Below are positions 2,676-38,664 of a stretch of 64,000 nt of DNA, in pieces. The notes under the pieces were generated by a model that made no database searches, was not told where the DNA came from, and was given only the letters and a program-made list of their open reading frames with translations. Source of the stretch: a phage; the sequence record PX880103.1; one strand, written 5' to 3'. The position numbers were made by a program, and so were the translations under genes. How positions within the stretch are numbered: position 1 is the stretch's first letter; each line of letters starts with the position of its first letter.

Positions 2676-4358
2676 TTAAACCATTACAGTAAATCGACCA
2701 ACTTTCTTCATTTGAAGATGCTGACCGTATGCTTGCGGGTCATGGTCTCTATGCGAAATAACAAAAACGTTAGTATTTTTTAAACTATCTAAAATAGTTG
2801 AAATAGCTTTTACACCTTCAACGTCGGTCGCTGAATCAAAAACTTCGTCAAGAATTAGCGTGTTTATTTTAACACCTGAAACTTTTTCAGCAATATCACG
2901 CCAAGTAAATAAAAGAGCAATATCAATTCGTGCTTTTTCACCTTGACTGAATGAAGCATAACTAAAATCTTCACGACCACGGGATTTAATTGTCTCATTA
3001 AATTCTTCATCTAATGTAAACACATAATCCGCTTCCATTATTTTAAGATAATGGTTAATCTGCTTATTAAATAATGGAATGTACTTTTTAATAATAGCAC
3101 CTTTAATACCAGAATCTTTGAGCATATCAGTCAAAATTCCTCGGTGGTATTTTTCCATTACTAAATTAGTTTTTGTCTTAACAATTTTATCAAGTTCTTC
3201 TTGAAGCAGTGCTATTTCATCAGCATGGTCAATAAACTCAGAAGATGCTTTTTCTATAGCCGCTTTAACTTTTTTAGCTTTATCTACCGTCGTGATTAGA
3301 GATTGCTTTTTATTGCGAATATCATTTGCCAACGACTGTTGGGTTTTAATATTATCTCGGTATTCATCAACAAGAACTTTTAAATTATCACGGTGTGTTG
3401 AAAGCTGTTCAAACGAATACGTACATTCAGAAACTTTATCTTTAATTTTGGAAACAACTTTATCACCGGAACTCAATTGCGACAAACAGGTTGGACATAA
3501 TCCACCTTCGTGATACATATTAATGACTTTATTATACGAGTCAATTTTTGATTTAATTAAAACTGCTTCTTGACCGATTTTATTAAATGCATCAGTCGGG
3601 TCTTCATCTAAAACAATATTAACTAATCTTTCATTAGCTTCTTCTATTTCCGATTTTAGCGTTCTAGCTTCTTTTGCCAAATCATCATACATATTTTGCA
3701 GACGAGTAAGGTTGTCACCAGTTAATTTTTTCTGGCGTTCAACATTATCATTATATATTTTAATTTGTTGGATAATACTATCTTTTTTAACATCAAGCAC
3801 TTGGTTCTGTGAATTTAATTCACGTATTAGTGCTTTGTTAAGCTTATCCATTTCAGCTAATGTTCCTACCTCAAGCAGGTCTTCCACAAGCTTTCTTCGC
3901 ACAGGGGTCGACAAACCCATGAAAGGGGTATACCCTGCTGTACCAAGGACAACAATCTGCTTGAAACTGGCATATGACATTCCGATAAGCTGTTCAAATT
4001 CTGCTTGGAAATCTTTACTGCTGGCAGATTCATTAAGACGTGTACCGTTAACGGTGATTTCGAAAACGTTTGGTTTTTGTCCTCTTTTGATATAGTACTT
4101 TTTCTCATCATATTCCATCCACAGTTCAACTAAAAGTTCTTTCTTATTTGTGCTGTTTATTAATTGACCTTTCTTTACATCACGAAATGGCTTGCCAAAA
4201 AGCCCAAATGTGATGGCTTCTAACATAGTAGACTTACCACCGCCATTTCGTCCAGTAATAAGAGTTTTTTGAACCTTATCTAATTGAATGTCAACTCCAT
4301 TTTGACCAACTGACATTATATTTTTATATTTTACTCTATTAAGTTTAAATGATTTCAT
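2676..4358 (-). CDS. 46: recombination endonuclease subunit gp46 (Rad50/SbcC-like ATPase)
   Basis: 560 aa, Walker A GRNGGGKST near N-terminus, long coiled-coil middle, signature/Walker B near C-terminus (LILDEVFDS). Confidence 0.9.
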   Translation of the reverse strand: MKSFKLNRVKYKNIMSVGQNGVDIQLDKVQKTLITGRNGGGKSTMLEAITFGLFGKPFRDVKKGQLINSTNKKELLVELWMEYDEKKYYIKRGQKPNVFEITVNGTRLNESASSKDFQAEFEQLIGMSYASFKQIVVLGTAGYTPFMGLSTPVRRKLVEDLLEVGTLAEMDKLNKALIRELNSQNQVLDVKKDSIIQQIKIYNDNVERQKKLTGDNLTRLQNMYDDLAKEARTLKSEIEEANERLVNIVLDEDPTDAFNKIGQEAVLIKSKIDSYNKVINMYHEGGLCPTCLSQLSSGDKVVSKIKDKVSECTYSFEQLSTHRDNLKVLVDEYRDNIKTQQSLANDIRNKKQSLITTVDKAKKVKAAIEKASSEFIDHADEIALLQEELDKIVKTKTNLVMEKYHRGILTDMLKDSGIKGAIIKKYIPLFNKQINHYLKIMEADYVFTLDEEFNETIKSRGREDFSYASFSQGEKARIDIALLFTWRDIAEKVSGVKINTLILDEVFDSATDVEGVKAISTILDSLKNTNVFVISHRDHDPQAYGQHLQMKKVGRFTVMV

Positions 4359-4373
4359 TTTGTATCCAATTGT

Positions 4374-5228
4374 TCACAATGAAGAAAATTCTTTAACTAA
4401 AGCCTGTAATGAAGCCTCTATTGGATATCCATTCTTAACTAACATTTTTCTAAACATCACATGTTTAGGACGATTATATGATATCCACAATTCATACAAT
4501 TTATCTTTATTATCCCAATGATAGCCTTTTCGTCGAGACGCTATATGAGCTTTTCTAATCTCCGGATTTTTCCAACTAGCAGCTACTGAATTTGATATAG
4601 CTATTTTATATTCAGGTTTTGATAAAGCAGCACGAACAGCCTTTTGGTGTTTAATTTTATTTTCTTCGTTATTAAACCATTCCCTTGAAGCCATTGAAAT
4701 TTTTTGTTTTGTTTTAAAATTATTTAATCTTTCTTTGTTATCTTTCCTATTTTTTGCTACTGAAAAATATTTTAATGCCCTTTCTCTAGCAGCATTTCTA
4801 TTTTGTGGATTTGAATAATACTGTTGAAGCCTTTTTGATATTGTGTCACTTACATCCTGTCTTATAAAACTATATTCAGCAGCTATTAAATCAACTTCGG
4901 CTAAAGATAAATTTTTATATGTTTTTCCTGACATCATTCTATTTAAAGCATTTAGCATTTTTCCATTTTTACCTTTTGCTAATAAGAAATGTGCTTTGAA
5001 ATGATTAAAATGACTTAAATTAACTAAATTCCATGTAGATTTTAAATATTCAGGAAATATTGATTTAGGAAGCACGTGGTGTGCTTCCGTTTTACCTGGA
5101 GTTTTAACAGTTGAATTCATAGAAATAAAATTAATGTAAGACTTGGCGTCTTCTTCACTCAACGCTAATTTTTCAACTAATTCCTTTATTAAAAATTCAT
5201 CATTAATATCAAGTTTAAAATTCTTCAC
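4374..5228 (-). CDS. free-standing HNH homing endonuclease (mob-like)
   Basis: 284 aa; HNH motif EAHHVLPKS...NLVNL...NHFKAH; basic C-terminal region; GTG start at 5228 with AAGGAA SD; sits between 46 and 47. Confidence 0.7.
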   Translation of the reverse strand: MKNFKLDINDEFLIKELVEKLALSEEDAKSYINFISMNSTVKTPGKTEAHHVLPKSIFPEYLKSTWNLVNLSHFNHFKAHFLLAKGKNGKMLNALNRMMSGKTYKNLSLAEVDLIAAEYSFIRQDVSDTISKRLQQYYSNPQNRNAARERALKYFSVAKNRKDNKERLNNFKTKQKISMASREWFNNEENKIKHQKAVRAALSKPEYKIAISNSVAASWKNPEIRKAHIASRRKGYHWDNKDKLYELWISYNRPKHVMFRKMLVKNGYPIEASLQALVKEFSSL

Positions 5229-5440
5229 AAAAGATTCCTTTTAATGTATCTTTTAGACCATTCTATCATATCATCATAATCTAAAAAGTATTCATCAAAT
5301 TCAGCCATGCAAACAACGCCTTGTGCTGTTTTTGATGTAATATAAATTATTCCAACATATCTAGAATCTTCTTCGGTATAATCAATGTTTGCTATGAATT
5401 CATCATTAATGTCAAATGTCGAAAACTTCACAGTATGCAT
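5225..5440 (-). CDS. hypothetical protein (46.x-like)
   Basis: ORF with internal ATG at 5440 preceded by TAAGGA; N-terminus VKFSTFDINDEF resembles start of the HNH ORF. Confidence 0.4.
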   Translation of the reverse strand: MHTVKFSTFDINDEFIANIDYTEEDSRYVGIIYITSKTAQGVVCMAEFDEYFLDYDDMIEWSKRYIKRNLL

Positions 5441-5675
5441 CCTTAATACAAGATACAGCCATATCTCGCAATGATTTAGGTGTGTCATTATCTAAAATGT
5501 TGAAGTTAAAGGATACAGCCCAGTCAGTGCAGACCGTAACTTTTTTAATACAATTATCTTCAACTTCTAGTGGTTCAAACCAGTATTCAATAATTTCTTT
5601 ATGACCAATATCATCTTTTACTTCACATTCAAAATGCTGACTCATCATAACATTTTTAAATTCATCAAAAGTCAT
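5412..5675 (-). CDS. hypothetical protein (46.x-like)
   Basis: 87 aa ORF immediately downstream of gene 47, same strand. Confidence 0.4.
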   Translation of the reverse strand: MTFDEFKNVMMSQHFECEVKDDIGHKEIIEYWFEPLEVEDNCIKKVTVCTDWAVSFNFNILDNDTPKSLRDMAVSCIKDAYCEVFDI

Positions 5676-6691
5676 TGTGTTGCCTCTACATATAACTGAT
5701 TTGCATATTGAATAAGTGCTTCACGGTCAGAATCAGTGATGTCTGGAATTGCATTAATGTATTCTTCCATCAATGTCTGAAGCGATTGAACTTCAACTTC
5801 TTCACTGTCATCTGACTCGACAGAGTTATCAATCTTTGACACAACTCGTAATGAATGCACAACTTTCTCTAGTTCAGATTCGAACTTCGTCAGATTTTTG
5901 TCTACTTCAGTTACTATAACACGTACTGATAGATTTGTAAAATCTTTATAGTCAATTTTTCCTTTAAATGGATAATGAATTCTACGATGCCAAGTAGTAT
6001 TGTTTGGAATAAATTCCATTCGTTCTGTTTCTGTATCAAACATCCAGAACCCGCGGGGGTCATTCTCGTCACCTGCAGTTAGTGTCCATGGTGTCCCAAT
6101 ATATCTGACGTTAGCAGCCTCAGAGATAGTATGGAAGTGACCAGACCACACTTCTTTGTAAGTCTTAAGGAAATCAGGTTCAAGACCGTGAGATTTCATT
6201 CCTTTATAAAAATAAAATCCATTCAGTTCCCAGTGACCGACACAATAAGAAGCAGATGAAGTTTTGATATGCTCAAGAATTTCACCAGTATTTTCTTCGC
6301 ACATCCAAGGAATCAAATCAATCAAACATCCGTCAAAATCTACTGTAGTAGGCTTATCATATACTTTAACATTAGGATATTTAGCCAAAAGCTCAGTAGA
6401 GGCATTTGGAGTTAAAGTATTTTTAAAGTGCATATCATGGTTTCCTACAACAGTATGTAGGGTAATACCAGCATCATCAAGCATTTGAACTATTTCACGG
6501 GCGAACTCCATAGTTTTATGCGTGATTGCTTTTCGCACATCAAAAATATCGCCGTATTGAATCCAGGTAGTAATTCCATTTTTCTTAGAATATTCTATCG
6601 CTTGCTTAATTCCATCCAACTGAATGGATTGAACCCACTCGTCATCGGCTTTAACGCCTAAATGCCAATCACCTAAATTTAAAATTTTCAT
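5672..6691 (-). CDS. 47: recombination endonuclease subunit gp47 (Mre11/SbcD-like phosphoesterase)
   Basis: 339 aa, MKILNLGDWHLG, metallophosphoesterase motifs GDIFD, GNHD, GHWE. Confidence 0.9.
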   Translation of the reverse strand: MKILNLGDWHLGVKADDEWVQSIQLDGIKQAIEYSKKNGITTWIQYGDIFDVRKAITHKTMEFAREIVQMLDDAGITLHTVVGNHDMHFKNTLTPNASTELLAKYPNVKVYDKPTTVDFDGCLIDLIPWMCEENTGEILEHIKTSSASYCVGHWELNGFYFYKGMKSHGLEPDFLKTYKEVWSGHFHTISEAANVRYIGTPWTLTAGDENDPRGFWMFDTETERMEFIPNNTTWHRRIHYPFKGKIDYKDFTNLSVRVIVTEVDKNLTKFESELEKVVHSLRVVSKIDNSVESDDSEEVEVQSLQTLMEEYINAIPDITDSDREALIQYANQLYVEATQ

Positions 6692-8313: not shown

Positions 8314-8520
8314 TCATAACTGCCACCATTTTTTAACTTGATAAGAATCAACCCACACTTTCATATTAGGGTCTGCTCTTACAATAGGAGGATTAACTTC
8401 TTTAATTGAACTATCATGGTATTCTTTTTCAGAAATTTTCACACAAAGATGACCATTCAAAGATTCAGTAAATCCTGCATTAATTTTAAGACGCTTGAAT
8501 TTTACGTGTGTAAGCATCAA
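8314..8520 (-). CDS. hypothetical protein
   Basis: 68 aa ORF, same-strand packing. Confidence 0.35.
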   Translation of the reverse strand: MMLTHVKFKRLKINAGFTESLNGHLCVKISEKEYHDSSIKEVNPPIVRADPNMKVWVDSYQVKKWWQL

Positions 8521-8803
8521 TCATATCCTCAATCTGCGATCTAGTAGTCTTCCAAAGAATACTGATGAGTTCATCGTTATATGGCTGTTTTAGAATATCC
8601 CGACTTTTCTTGATAGCATATTCGTATTGAGCAAAATTATTGTTTTCAGCTGCAATCTGAGCGTGCTTATAAAGACGGTTCAGTTCGCGTTTGTTTTTAG
8701 ATAATAACTTATTTGCTTTTCTTTCTGCTTCAAGACGGTTCTTTTCTTCAATAGAAGAAATAAGCTTTTCCACTTCATCATTAATTTCGGGTTTATCAGT
8801 CAT
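8486..8803 (-). CDS. hypothetical protein
   Basis: 105 aa ORF, coiled-coil-like, same-strand packing. Confidence 0.4.
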   Translation of the reverse strand: MTDKPEINDEVEKLISSIEEKNRLEAERKANKLLSKNKRELNRLYKHAQIAAENNNFAQYEYAIKKSRDILKQPYNDELISILWKTTRSQIEDMIDAYTRKIQAS

Positions 8804-21781: not shown

Positions 21782-21784
21782 CAA

Positions 21785-33056: not shown

Positions 33057-33359
33057 TTATTTACCTTTAATTACTTTAGCTGCTTCGATAGCCGCTTGCT
33101 GAAGGTCATCCATAGACATACCGAATTTAGAAGCAAAGTTATCAATTTTCTTTTCGACAGCATTCAAAGGCTTGGCCTGTTTACCTTCATTAGCGCCAGG
33201 AAGAGCGAGAATACGCTCTTTGTCAATATAAAGGCTTACAAGTTTCTTACGGTCTTTATCGGACAAATCATGAAATGAATGGGCCTTTTTATTTATAGCG
33301 GCTTCTAATTTACCTGCACTCACTCGCGCTTCAGTAATAAATTCTTGATATGTTTTCAT
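33057..33359 (-). CDS. ipII: internal protein II-like (capsid-targeted)
   Basis: 100 aa, N-terminal capsid targeting sequence MKTYQEFITE with ITE protease site. Confidence 0.6.
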   Translation of the reverse strand: MKTYQEFITEARVSAGKLEAAINKKAHSFHDLSDKDRKKLVSLYIDKERILALPGANEGKQAKPLNAVEKKIDNFASKFGMSMDDLQQAAIEAAKVIKGK

Positions 33360-33400: not shown

Positions 33401-33979
33401 TTAATTACCACGGGCTGCATTAGCAACGGCATAAGCGTACTGAACATTAGCGTCCTTAAACGTACCTTTAGAGGTATCTATTTCTGCCTTAAAGCCGCCT
33501 TTAGCCATAACATCGGCAAATTCTTTACGGAAAGCCATTGCATCAAGACCTTTCCATGATGATTTGTGCTTGGCGAATTCAAGACCAGCGTAGTTGACAG
33601 CCTTAGCTAATTTATTATCAATGACCCATTTACCGGCTTTAGGCACAAACTTCGGACCTTTTTGTTTAGAGAACAGTTTTAAATTCCAGCGACGAAGATC
33701 ACTGTCGGCTTTAACAAAAGCTGCGTCTAAGTTACTAGCAACAACATCTTCAATATGAGCAAATTTAAGTCCGTCAACTTCAATATTTAAATCGGTACGC
33801 CAGCGAAGTCCTTCCCAAGCGAAAGCTTTAAAATCGGAAGCTTTTGTAGCTAAGTATCGTTCAATAGGGGCTGTTTTAGGGTCAAAGCCGTTTCCACCAC
33901 GATAGTTCCACTCATCTTTATTAATGCCTTTGGCCTTTACTACAGAAGCTTCAGCGATAAATTCTTTATACGTTTTCAT
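33401..33979 (-). CDS. ipIII: internal protein III-like (capsid-targeted)
   Basis: 192 aa, N-terminal MKTYKEFIAE CTS. Confidence 0.6.
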   Translation of the reverse strand: MKTYKEFIAEASVVKAKGINKDEWNYRGGNGFDPKTAPIERYLATKASDFKAFAWEGLRWRTDLNIEVDGLKFAHIEDVVASNLDAAFVKADSDLRRWNLKLFSKQKGPKFVPKAGKWVIDNKLAKAVNYAGLEFAKHKSSWKGLDAMAFRKEFADVMAKGGFKAEIDTSKGTFKDANVQYAYAVANAARGN

Positions 33980-33995: not shown

Positions 33996-34313
33996 TTATT
34001 CTTTAGGGAAGTTTTTAGAATATGCATCATAAAGCTTATTTCCAATACGGCGGAAAACTCTAGCCGCAAAACGATTTTCTGGGTTTTTAATCATGATTTG
34101 CATCATATAAGTACCCGCGTCAGAAAGAGCTTCTTCATAGTACCCGTTAATTTCTTTAAGAGTCCTACGTTTACCACCAGGACCATCAACAGTGATTTTC
34201 CATTTACCCGTAGAAGTGCGACTTGGCGGCTCAACTTGTTCAATCCAGATATAACCGCCTTCTACACGTTGTCCTGCAGCAGATTCTGCAATAAATTCTT
34301 GATATGTTTTCAT
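33996..34313 (-). CDS. additional CTS-bearing internal-protein candidate
   Basis: 105 aa, N-terminal MKTYQEFIAE CTS; lies between e and ipIII. Confidence 0.5.
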   Translation of the reverse strand: MKTYQEFIAESAAGQRVEGGYIWIEQVEPPSRTSTGKWKITVDGPGGKRRTLKEINGYYEEALSDAGTYMMQIMIKNPENRFAARVFRRIGNKLYDAYSKNFPKE

Positions 34314-38100: not shown

Positions 38101-38664
38101 TTATTTACCTAGTTTAGTTATTATAGCTTCGGCAGCAGCTTTTAGCTTAGATGCAGTGTTAATACGATTTTTAATTTCAGTATAAGCATCGCCAAGAACA
38201 TCAAGGCTATCAGAATAAACACTTACACTATTGCGTTCGCTATTTGAAATAGAACCTTTAGTTTTACGATCAAAATCAGTGTACACATCTTGAAGATCGC
38301 GGGCTGCCTTCTTTGCATCATCTAACGCATCAAGAGCTTTATTCAAAGCATTGACATATTTTTTAGTATCAAACATATTCTTAGAAATTTTGACAGGTGC
38401 GCGTTCAGGAGTAGCTAAGGCAGATTTAGGAACCTGAGCGCCTGATGCTAATTTCTTAGAAATTTTGAAAAATGCTTTATTGAATTTATTTTCTTGACTC
38501 ATCGTAAAAGAACTATTATCAATGTTATACATTTCAATAGCTTTAGCTTTCCACTTAAGAAAATCGCCACGGTCTTTTGGGTCCAATTGGAAGAATACTT
38601 TAGTAAGATCTGCTTCAGATGGTAATTTTGCTGCTTCGGTTAAAAATTCGGCATAGGTTTTCAT
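38101..38664 (-). CDS. CTS-bearing protein (e.8-like), possible internal protein
   Basis: 187 aa, N-terminus MKTYAEFLTEAAKL resembles capsid targeting sequence. Confidence 0.45.
   Translation of the reverse strand: MKTYAEFLTEAAKLPSEADLTKVFFQLDPKDRGDFLKWKAKAIEMYNIDNSSFTMSQENKFNKAFFKISKKLASGAQVPKSALATPERAPVKISKNMFDTKKYVNALNKALDALDDAKKAARDLQDVYTDFDRKTKGSISNSERNSVSVYSDSLDVLGDAYTEIKNRINTASKLKAAAEAIITKLGK

Follow-up and report, generated by a model that had tools for sequence, protein, structure and literature searches.

A probable Mob-type homing endonuclease gene set into the first codons of gene 46 in a T2-like phage

The endonucleases MobA to MobE of phage T4 have an N-terminal HH...N...H...H core and a long helical C-terminal part, and their genes are free-standing, lie between conserved genes and start in overlap with the upstream open reading frame (ORF). 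Nicking has been shown for MobA and MobE only, and for several free-standing homing endonuclease genes (HEGs) of T4 that overlap the upstream ORF translational coupling has been described (PMC2988022). SegF, SegG and MobE carry out intronless homing, with a cut in the neighbouring conserved gene, co-conversion and marker exclusion. In the homing of T4 introns, one-sided illegitimate repair of double-strand breaks at microhomologies has been reported (Parker, Belisle and Belfort 1999, as summarised in PMC2988022), and this type of repair is a proposed route of homing elements into new contexts (PMC2988022). In this work we focused on a gene of 284 codons, hereafter the HEG, on the minus strand of a 64,000-nucleotide stretch of phage DNA (record PX880103.1, hereafter the window). 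We conclude, with a probability of roughly 0.8, that it is a free-standing homing endonuclease gene of the Mob (HNH) family, from a lineage specialised on the 5' end of gene 46.

The window shares 97.8% identity with T2 records over its first 24 kb and 99.2% over the 2-kb region around the HEG, which marks it as a T2-like Tequatrovirus. The ORF is present as the first-pass annotation described it, at 4374-5228 on the minus strand with a GTG start and 284 amino acids. It had been placed between genes 46 and 47, and it does lie in that interval; its precise place is between 46.1 and 46, with 46.2 and 47 upstream, the order on the minus strand being gene 47, 46.2, 46.1, the 284-amino-acid ORF, a 15-nucleotide spacer and gene 46. 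T4 was taken there to have no endonuclease gene at this place, correctly, the T4 46.1 stop overlapping the gene-46 start with nothing between them. Like the Mob genes of T4, the HEG is free-standing, lies between conserved genes and starts in overlap with the ORF upstream. It differs from them in its locus, 46.1/46, where T4 carries no copy, and in being not merely intergenic, since it lies within the opening codons of the essential gene downstream, for which it supplies a replacement start. The features are as follows.

4374-5228, minus strand: the HEG, predicted free-standing Mob-type HNH homing endonuclease gene, 284 amino acids, intact, GTG start at 5228 (ORF, PHROG 655, MobD similarity, invariant residues, AlphaFold2 model).
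5211-5228, minus strand: native gene-46 start GTGAAGAATTTTAAACTT, which forms the left direct repeat and serves as HEG codons 1-6 (identical to the start of gene 46 in T4 at 20/20 positions, 2 of them upstream).
5193-5210, minus strand: HEG codons 7-12 (DINDEF), the putatively 46.1-derived tract (16/18 against 5396-5413 and 5/18 against gene 46; 14-nucleotide exact run).
5396-5413, minus strand: 46.1 codons 7-12, the source-like copy of the DINDEF tract (14-mer and register comparison).
4359-4373, minus strand: 15-nucleotide spacer from the HEG stop (TGA, 4374-4376) to the new gene-46 ATG, with a weak GGA Shine-Dalgarno (from the sequence).
4341-4358, minus strand: substitute gene-46 start ATGAAATCATTTAAACTT (MKSFKL), which forms the right direct repeat and came with the element (in 8/8 HEG-bearing genomes examined).
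4295-4341, minus strand: hypervariable patch in codons 6-22 of gene 46 (+17 to +63), a candidate zone of recognition or cleavage and of co-conversion (mismatch clusters, haplotypes, cross-genus identities).
4977-5090, minus strand: HEG codons 47-84, predicted beta-beta-alpha metal nuclease core, TEAHH...NLVNLS-HFNHFKAHFLLA (model strands and helix, invariant motif columns).
2676-4358, minus strand: gene 46 (SbcC/Rad50-like recombination nuclease subunit), intact, with its first codons replaced, ATG at 4358 (ORF; T2 and T4 annotation).
5225-5431, minus strand: gene 46.1 (DUF5487), intact, GTG at 5431 (Pfam PF17589, E = 2.3e-49; coordinates in agreement with the RefSeq T2 and T4 annotation).
5412-5675, minus strand: 46.2 (Pfam T4_Y03C).
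5672-6691, minus strand: gene 47, upstream of 46.2.

The 5' end of the HEG is composite. Its first 20 nucleotides match the native gene-46 start of T4 at 20/20 positions and 46.1 at 13/20. Through GTGAAGAATTTTAAACTT the sequence is that of the T4 46.1/46 junction, with the AAGGAA Shine-Dalgarno and gene-46 codons 1-6, and divergence from T4 gene 46 begins at codon 7. The next six codons (GATATTAATGATGAATTT, DINDEF) are identical to 46.1 codons 7-12 at 16/18 nucleotides and to gene 46 at 5/18. The HEG GTG overlaps the 46.1 stop (GTGA), with AAGGAA 6 nucleotides upstream. Gene 46 restarts 870 bp downstream with ATGAAATCATTTAAACTT and is exactly T4-like thereafter, so that the insert relative to T4, with breakpoints from the T4 and RB32 alignments, measures 870 bp and follows codon 6 of gene 46, within the gene. 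On either side stands a copy of an 18-nucleotide imperfect direct repeat; the copies lie 870 bp apart, and their last 9 nucleotides (TTTAAACTT) are exact. At the left junction (...AAACTT/GATATT) the TT is common with 46.1 (...ACATTT/GACATT). Both a target-sequence duplication and a microhomology junction are thus present, as in the products of illegitimate one-sided double-strand-break repair. The substitute gene-46 start, whose first 15 nucleotides equal the RB69 gene-46 start, was found in 8/8 occupied genomes, and the native start in 9/9 empty genomes examined. To judge from these junctions, the HEG has no translation start of its own and uses the original Shine-Dalgarno and GTG of gene 46, and the substitute start, together with the short spacer at the HEG 3' end, keeps the essential gene 46 intact.

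The likeness between the HEG start and the start of the small ORF, 46.1, was measured at 29/38 identical positions (minus strand, 5230-5193 against 5433-5396), in the same register from the GTG starts and with a 14-nucleotide exact run ATTAATGATGAATT, in agreement with the identity of about 76% given in the first-pass annotation. The 14-mer occurs exactly twice in the window, with one further copy at one mismatch (8772-8785); shuffles predict 0.17 matches to it. Among all in-register ORF-start pairs in the window (n = 14,196), identity averages 12.4/38 with a standard deviation of 2.9, and five pairs reach 29/38, namely the HEG/46.1 pair and four others. Three of these four come from a family of small ORFs with the common N-terminus MKTY(Q/K)EFI and the fourth from two TTG-start ORFs with early-promoter-like DNA; they are not comparable controls. 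The HEG 5' end is a recombination footprint, not a product of chance. A conserved ribosome-binding site or leader of many unrelated genes would recur, and the 14-mer has only its two exact copies in the window. Chance and a generic leader or ribosome-binding site were both rejected as sources of the repeat, on the 14-mer counts and the ORF-start pairs.

The other sequences met in these comparisons can be described briefly. The copy with one mismatch, ATTAATGATGAAGT (...EINDEVEKL...), is on the minus strand at 8772-8785, in codons 7-11 of ORF 8486-8803, and with 0.17 expected it is probably due to chance. ORFs 33057-33359, 33401-33979 and 33996-34313 (minus strand) share the N-terminus MKTY(Q/K)EFI(A/T)E, which is also found at starts near 38664 and 42248. 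Members of this family are identical at 26-32 of their first 38 nucleotides and differ in the remainder of their proteins, and are thus neighbouring genes with shared 5' ends. The TTG-start 'ORFs' near 21784 and 23223 (minus strand) share 29/38 nucleotides (GTTGTTTACAAG...TGGTACTATACAA), a likeness better explained by repeats of T4 early-promoter sequence than by related coding sequence.

The HEG protein matches PHROG 655 'homing endonuclease' (E = 3.5e-45), to which the T4 Mob endonucleases also belong, and PHROG 12434 'HNH endonuclease' (E = 1.8e-15). A tblastn search returned 315 phage records, many with 'Mob-like' genes and with mobE-annotated genes among the matches; over residues 47-281, which make up 83% of the length, the HEG product is 30.5% identical to that of mobD in T4, RB3 and RB5 (E = 6e-12). 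In an alignment of 32 sequences the invariant columns Y31, H50, H51, P54, N67, L71, H76 and H80, which include the HH...N...H...H motif, are all kept in the HEG. The AlphaFold2 model (pLDDT 93.2) has strands at residues 47-51 and 68-72 and a helix at 73-84, in a beta-beta-alpha arrangement, and is all-helical over residues 89-283, again as in the Mob proteins. The HNH label of the first-pass annotation is thus supported by both PHROGs and by the motif. Residues 1-10 are the sole low-confidence, disordered part of the model (pLDDT 66), which fits an appended leader. Homologues usually have 3-5 residues ahead of an I-K-x-L helix, which begins at residue 14 in the HEG; the first 8-10 or so HEG residues would therefore be extra. 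Among the 32 homologues Pfam matches were obtained to NUMOD3 (10/32), an I-HmuI NUMOD-like domain (4/32), HNH (3/32), HNH_4 (2/32) and HNH_5 (2/32). The Pfam scan of the HEG protein itself gave no NUMOD match, and the Pfam and NCBIfam scans returned just a sub-threshold putAbiC match. RefSeq labels the T2 and T6 counterparts 'homing endonuclease'. A literature search found no mention of an endonuclease gene at 46.1/46; the HEG is annotated in databases, uncharacterised and unnamed, with a junction anatomy that has apparently not been described.

An exhaustive search of 1.84 billion representatives gave one other cluster only below E = 1e-30, at 44% identity; the range from 44% to 95% identity contained no relative. 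The genes nearest to the HEG, 42-44% identical to it, occur in Mosigvirus and Gelderlandvirus-like phages, and they are those of F2-type Mosigviruses, of Salmonella phage Melville and of a Logan contig (L010). These 'MobD-like' genes resemble the HEG in their locus, all being directly upstream of gene 46, and in a C-terminal region that abuts the gene-46 start. The order is 47-46.2-HEG-46 in the F2 type, with 46.1 missing, and 47-HEG-46 in Melville and L010. In all three the HEG stop lies inside gene-46 codons 4-5, whereas the window ORF stops 15 nucleotides before gene 46. RB69, an element-free relative of F2, has the order 47-46.2-46.1-46, and the first 22 nucleotides of the F2 HEG (ATGACGAAGACTGATTATGAAA, MTKTDYE) equal the RB69 46.1 start, at the matching overlap with the 46.2 stop. 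The Mosigvirus HEG has evidently replaced 46.1 and been fused in frame to its first 7 codons. The fusion point is 19 residues before a conserved Y-x-x-F-I, and the 46.1-like tract of the window ends 18 residues before it. The sources of the start thus differ: the F2 HEG replaces 46.1 and uses its first 7 codons, the Melville and L010 HEGs start on the gene-47 stop codon, and the window HEG starts on gene 46's own start, retains 46.1 and has a leader made of gene-46 codons 1-6 and 46.1 codons 7-12.

The first-pass annotation had seen in the repeat a homing insertion that copied the 5' end of its target gene, which it took to be the small ORF. The insertion footprint stands, but the duplicated start is that of gene 46; and while codons 7-12 are 46.1-like (16/18), codons 1-6 are the gene-46 start (20/20) and not, as had been supposed, part of a 12-codon copy from 46.1. 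In its full form the earlier account would have the HEG homing into or next to 46.1 as its target and copying the whole 12-codon 5' end from it, for which the in-register 29/38 identity with its 14-nucleotide run can be cited, as can the F2 sister, truly fused to a local 46.1 start. We regard it as very improbable. The first 20 nucleotides agree with gene 46 rather than 46.1 (20/20 against 13/20), the T4 and RB32 empty sites put the breakpoint after gene-46 codon 6, and 46.1 is intact and unchanged, the replaced start belonging to gene 46. The empty-site alignment contradicts a 46.1 target, which would need a second 46.1-like gene starting VKNFKLDINDEF in element-free relatives.

The DINDEF codons appear to be 46.1-derived and are best explained by an earlier HEG fused to the 46.1 start; that the F2 HEG begins with 22 nucleotides of its local 46.1 supports such an ancestor. 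It is about as improbable as a 46.1 target that DINDEF is the HEG's own N-terminus, the DNA match to 46.1 being coincidental or the result of later local gene conversion. Aligned N-termini do show a weak amino-acid resemblance (MIDAET in Melville, MDINF in SmallBear), but just 2/6 residues are common with Melville, chance would hardly give 16/18 identical nucleotides in exact register, the first 8-10 or so residues are extra relative to the family, and residues 1-10 are disordered in the model. The simplest reading of the junctions would be a history in two steps. A HEG would first have replaced most of a T4-type 46.1 and become joined, in frame, to codons 1-12 of that gene, much as in F2. In a second step, a one-sided, microhomology-guided illegitimate repair of a double-strand break, the broken end of an element-free genome (...TGTGAAGAATTTTAAACTT) would have paired in register with the 46.1-type leader (TGTGAAGTTTTCGACATTT/GAYATTAATGATGAATT) and been extended from codon 7, restoring an intact 46.1 and leaving gene-46 codons 1-6 and 46.1 codons 7-12 at the front of the HEG. 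Such a history explains the intact 46.1, both sets of codons and the identical register. The window resembles the illegitimate repair of the T4 td intron in having one homologous junction (here within gene 46), one microhomology junction and a target duplication; with the td intron the process was shown experimentally, whereas here it is read from the junction sequences.

Element-free Tequatroviruses fall into two classes, the T4 and RB32 types, which are separated by 13 substitutions within 46 nucleotides (about +17 to +62 of gene 46, codons 6-21), against about 1 difference per 40-75 nucleotides in the flanks. A similar mismatch cluster separates F2 from RB69 (+33 to +65), and the F2 type thus resembles the window HEG in having a hypervariable gene-46 patch linked to the element. 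All 8 HEG-bearing genomes examined carry a single T4-type patch allele. The RB32-type patch is 0.84 identical to RB69, against 0.82 in the next 114 nucleotides, an ordinary inter-genus distance; the T4/T2-type patch is 0.67 identical, against 0.81, and is slightly closer to Melville (0.82 against 0.77). The element-linked patch therefore looks like a derived or imported allele in both genera. The hypervariable patch tracks the element in two genera and is its likely target and co-conversion zone. We would place the recognition site of the enzyme in gene 46, near the conserved NIMSVG codons, and take the patch to mark target or immunity variation together with co-conversion. In a mixed infection the enzyme would nick or cut an element-free gene 46 near codons 6-22, and T4 recombination-dependent repair would then copy the element with a short flanking patch. 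The gene 46 product is a Rad50/SbcC-like nuclease subunit thought to process the breaks used in homing.

The logic is that of the intronless homing of SegF, SegG and MobE, which the HEG resembles in its place beside an essential gene, in allelic differences near the insertion point and in short flanking tracts that would travel with the element. The Seg enzymes are of the GIY-YIG type, whereas the HEG is Mob/HNH and its cleavage site and marker exclusion are hypothetical. T4 combines the native gene-46 start with the element-linked patch, the sequence that would be expected from loss of the element between the two TTTAAACTT repeats and, equally, from the recipient of the original insertion. 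A wider history may be put forward tentatively, and we hold it to be rather less than an even chance: that the lineage has tracked the gene-46 5' end across at least three genera, each time capturing an upstream start (at the overlap with the gene-47 stop, that of 46.1 or the native one of gene 46) and dragging an 'immune' patch of codons 6-22 with it, the T4 allele being a scar of former occupancy and the RB32 type a naive, cleavable target.

Empty sites were found in relatives. Among 518 Tequatrovirus records the HEG is present in 72 and the 46.1/46 junction is uninterrupted in 446, the empty sites, that of T4 included, being precise. Apart from that of Ac3, the copies share at least 97.5% protein identity, and flanking SNP haplotypes beyond about -80/+75 are shuffled among 8 HEG-bearing genomes. 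Of the copies listed, about 39/50 are intact and about 11/50 decayed by frameshift or truncation, the disrupted ones including those of T2, RB51, RB68, G2133 and MLP2. In the T2 RefSeq record a 2-nucleotide deletion (at window 4619-4620) splits the gene into two annotated ORFs, and since the window copy is intact the window is not the sequenced T2 strain. Patchy, near-identical and partly decayed copies are the usual picture of HEG invasion and decay. One might instead suppose a domesticated resident, no longer mobile and selected in T2/T6-like phages, for example as a regulator of gp46 translation or as an exclusion or defence nuclease, and the intact ORF in most copies and the control that the HEG has over the translation-initiation region upstream of an essential gene would suit such a role. 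The patchy distribution with precise empty sites in most relatives, several independent frameshifted or truncated copies in viable phages, T2 included, and near-identical copies across shuffled backgrounds make this, in our view, a poor bet.

Some variants and neighbours of the HEG were also recorded. A 290-amino-acid form from Logan assemblies (P0167) has one T fewer in a T-run (GAATTTTCTTC, window 4374-4385), has a product ending in ...EFLHCEQLDTK*, and its stop overlaps the gene-46 start (ATGA). It is probably the older state, from which the common 284-amino-acid form seems to derive by a +1 frameshift, with a stop 15 nucleotides sooner. In Ac3 (OK040907.1; 1546-3062 of the locus compared) the DNA is about 60-80% identical to the window from the HEG start codon into gene 46, with 89.5% identity in protein; GC content rises from about 31% to 45-53%, codons preferred in E. 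coli (CTG, GCG, ATC and others) are used, the start is GTT and the ORF is frameshifted. The segment has the appearance of DNA that was recoded or synthesised, or else of a chimeric assembly, within a public phage record. The 46/47 region of relatives is a hotspot for other endonuclease genes, which the window lacks. In Lutter and PhiZZ23 an ORF (called 'HNH endonuclease' in the former and 'hypothetical protein' in the latter) overlaps the gene-47 start at the a-gt/47.1 position of T2 (1-332 of the loci compared), and in PhiZZ30 and Paracelsus an opposite-strand 'homing endonuclease' overlaps the gene-46 3' end (3427-3501 of the loci compared).

Scans for sigma-70-type promoters and terminators in and around the HEG gave counts equal to those of shuffled sequences, and between 4200 and 7000 there were no T4 late promoters (TATAAATA) or full MotA-box motifs; the HEG itself contains two bare TGCTTTA cores, at 4950 and 4629. 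With no promoter or terminator standing out, the HEG most probably rides on the 47-46 transcripts. RNA folding revealed no hairpin sequestering the ribosome-binding site, at the HEG start (z = 0.18), the new gene-46 start (z = 0.69) or the T4 junction (z = -1.09). Since its GTG overlaps the 46.1 stop, HEG translation is probably coupled to that of 46.1, and the level would probably be low.

Several points count against the interpretation given here. The HEG protein had no match to a curated Pfam or NCBIfam HNH model (PF01844, PF13395 and PF14279 included), so that its HNH membership rests on PHROG 655 and 12434, the motif and transitive homology; searches of the PDB by sequence (phmmer and the 32-sequence profile) and by fold retrieved no HNH structure. 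Cleavage, the cleavage site and super-Mendelian inheritance of the HEG are all things we infer. T4-type empty sites carry the HEG-linked patch as well, so that the linkage is not exclusive and either patch allele may be the sensitive one. Searches of INPHARED, IMG/VR, the JGI metagenomes and the 90%-identity clusters gave no example of the fused intermediate of the two-step history (46.1 codons 1-12 joined to the HEG, 46.1 itself being absent); exact and degenerate DNA patterns for it or for other left junctions had zero matches in IMG/VR and the JGI metagenomes, and the 90%-identity cluster of the HEG and its members all have the same N-terminus, MKNFKLDINDEF. Finally, the 46.1-like tract is just 18 nucleotides long, and a template switch within a single repair event would explain it equally well. 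The origin would then be a single step with no 46.1-fused ancestor, the invading end priming first on a sister genome's 46.1 start (by the shared TGTGAAG), copying about 18 nucleotides and switching at GAATT to the HEG. The short tract indeed has microhomologies at both ends (TT at the left, GAATT(T) at the right), no database searched holds the intermediate, and illegitimate repair with microhomology junctions is documented in T4 (PMC2988022). Such an origin needs two consecutive illegitimate steps, both in frame, while F2 shows a stable fusion to the 46.1 start within the lineage and at nearly the same HEG position (18 against 19 residues before Y-x-x-F-I); we consider it unlikely, though less so than the other alternatives, and retain the 46.1-fused ancestor.

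The current understanding of homing endonucleases is not overturned by these results. They add a Mob-type endonuclease to the homing elements of T-even phages, at a locus absent from the T4 catalogue, and provide a concrete candidate target (gene 46 codons 6-22) together with natural candidate sensitive and immune alleles. T2 and T6 being standard laboratory phages, the HEG could bias the inheritance of markers around genes 46 and 47 in their crosses with T4. Read base by base, the junctions, which are unusually informative, make plain how an essential gene can harbour a selfish one in its first codons and come to no harm, the newcomer taking the resident start and bringing a spare, and in three genera a single lineage presents different solutions to this start-codon problem.

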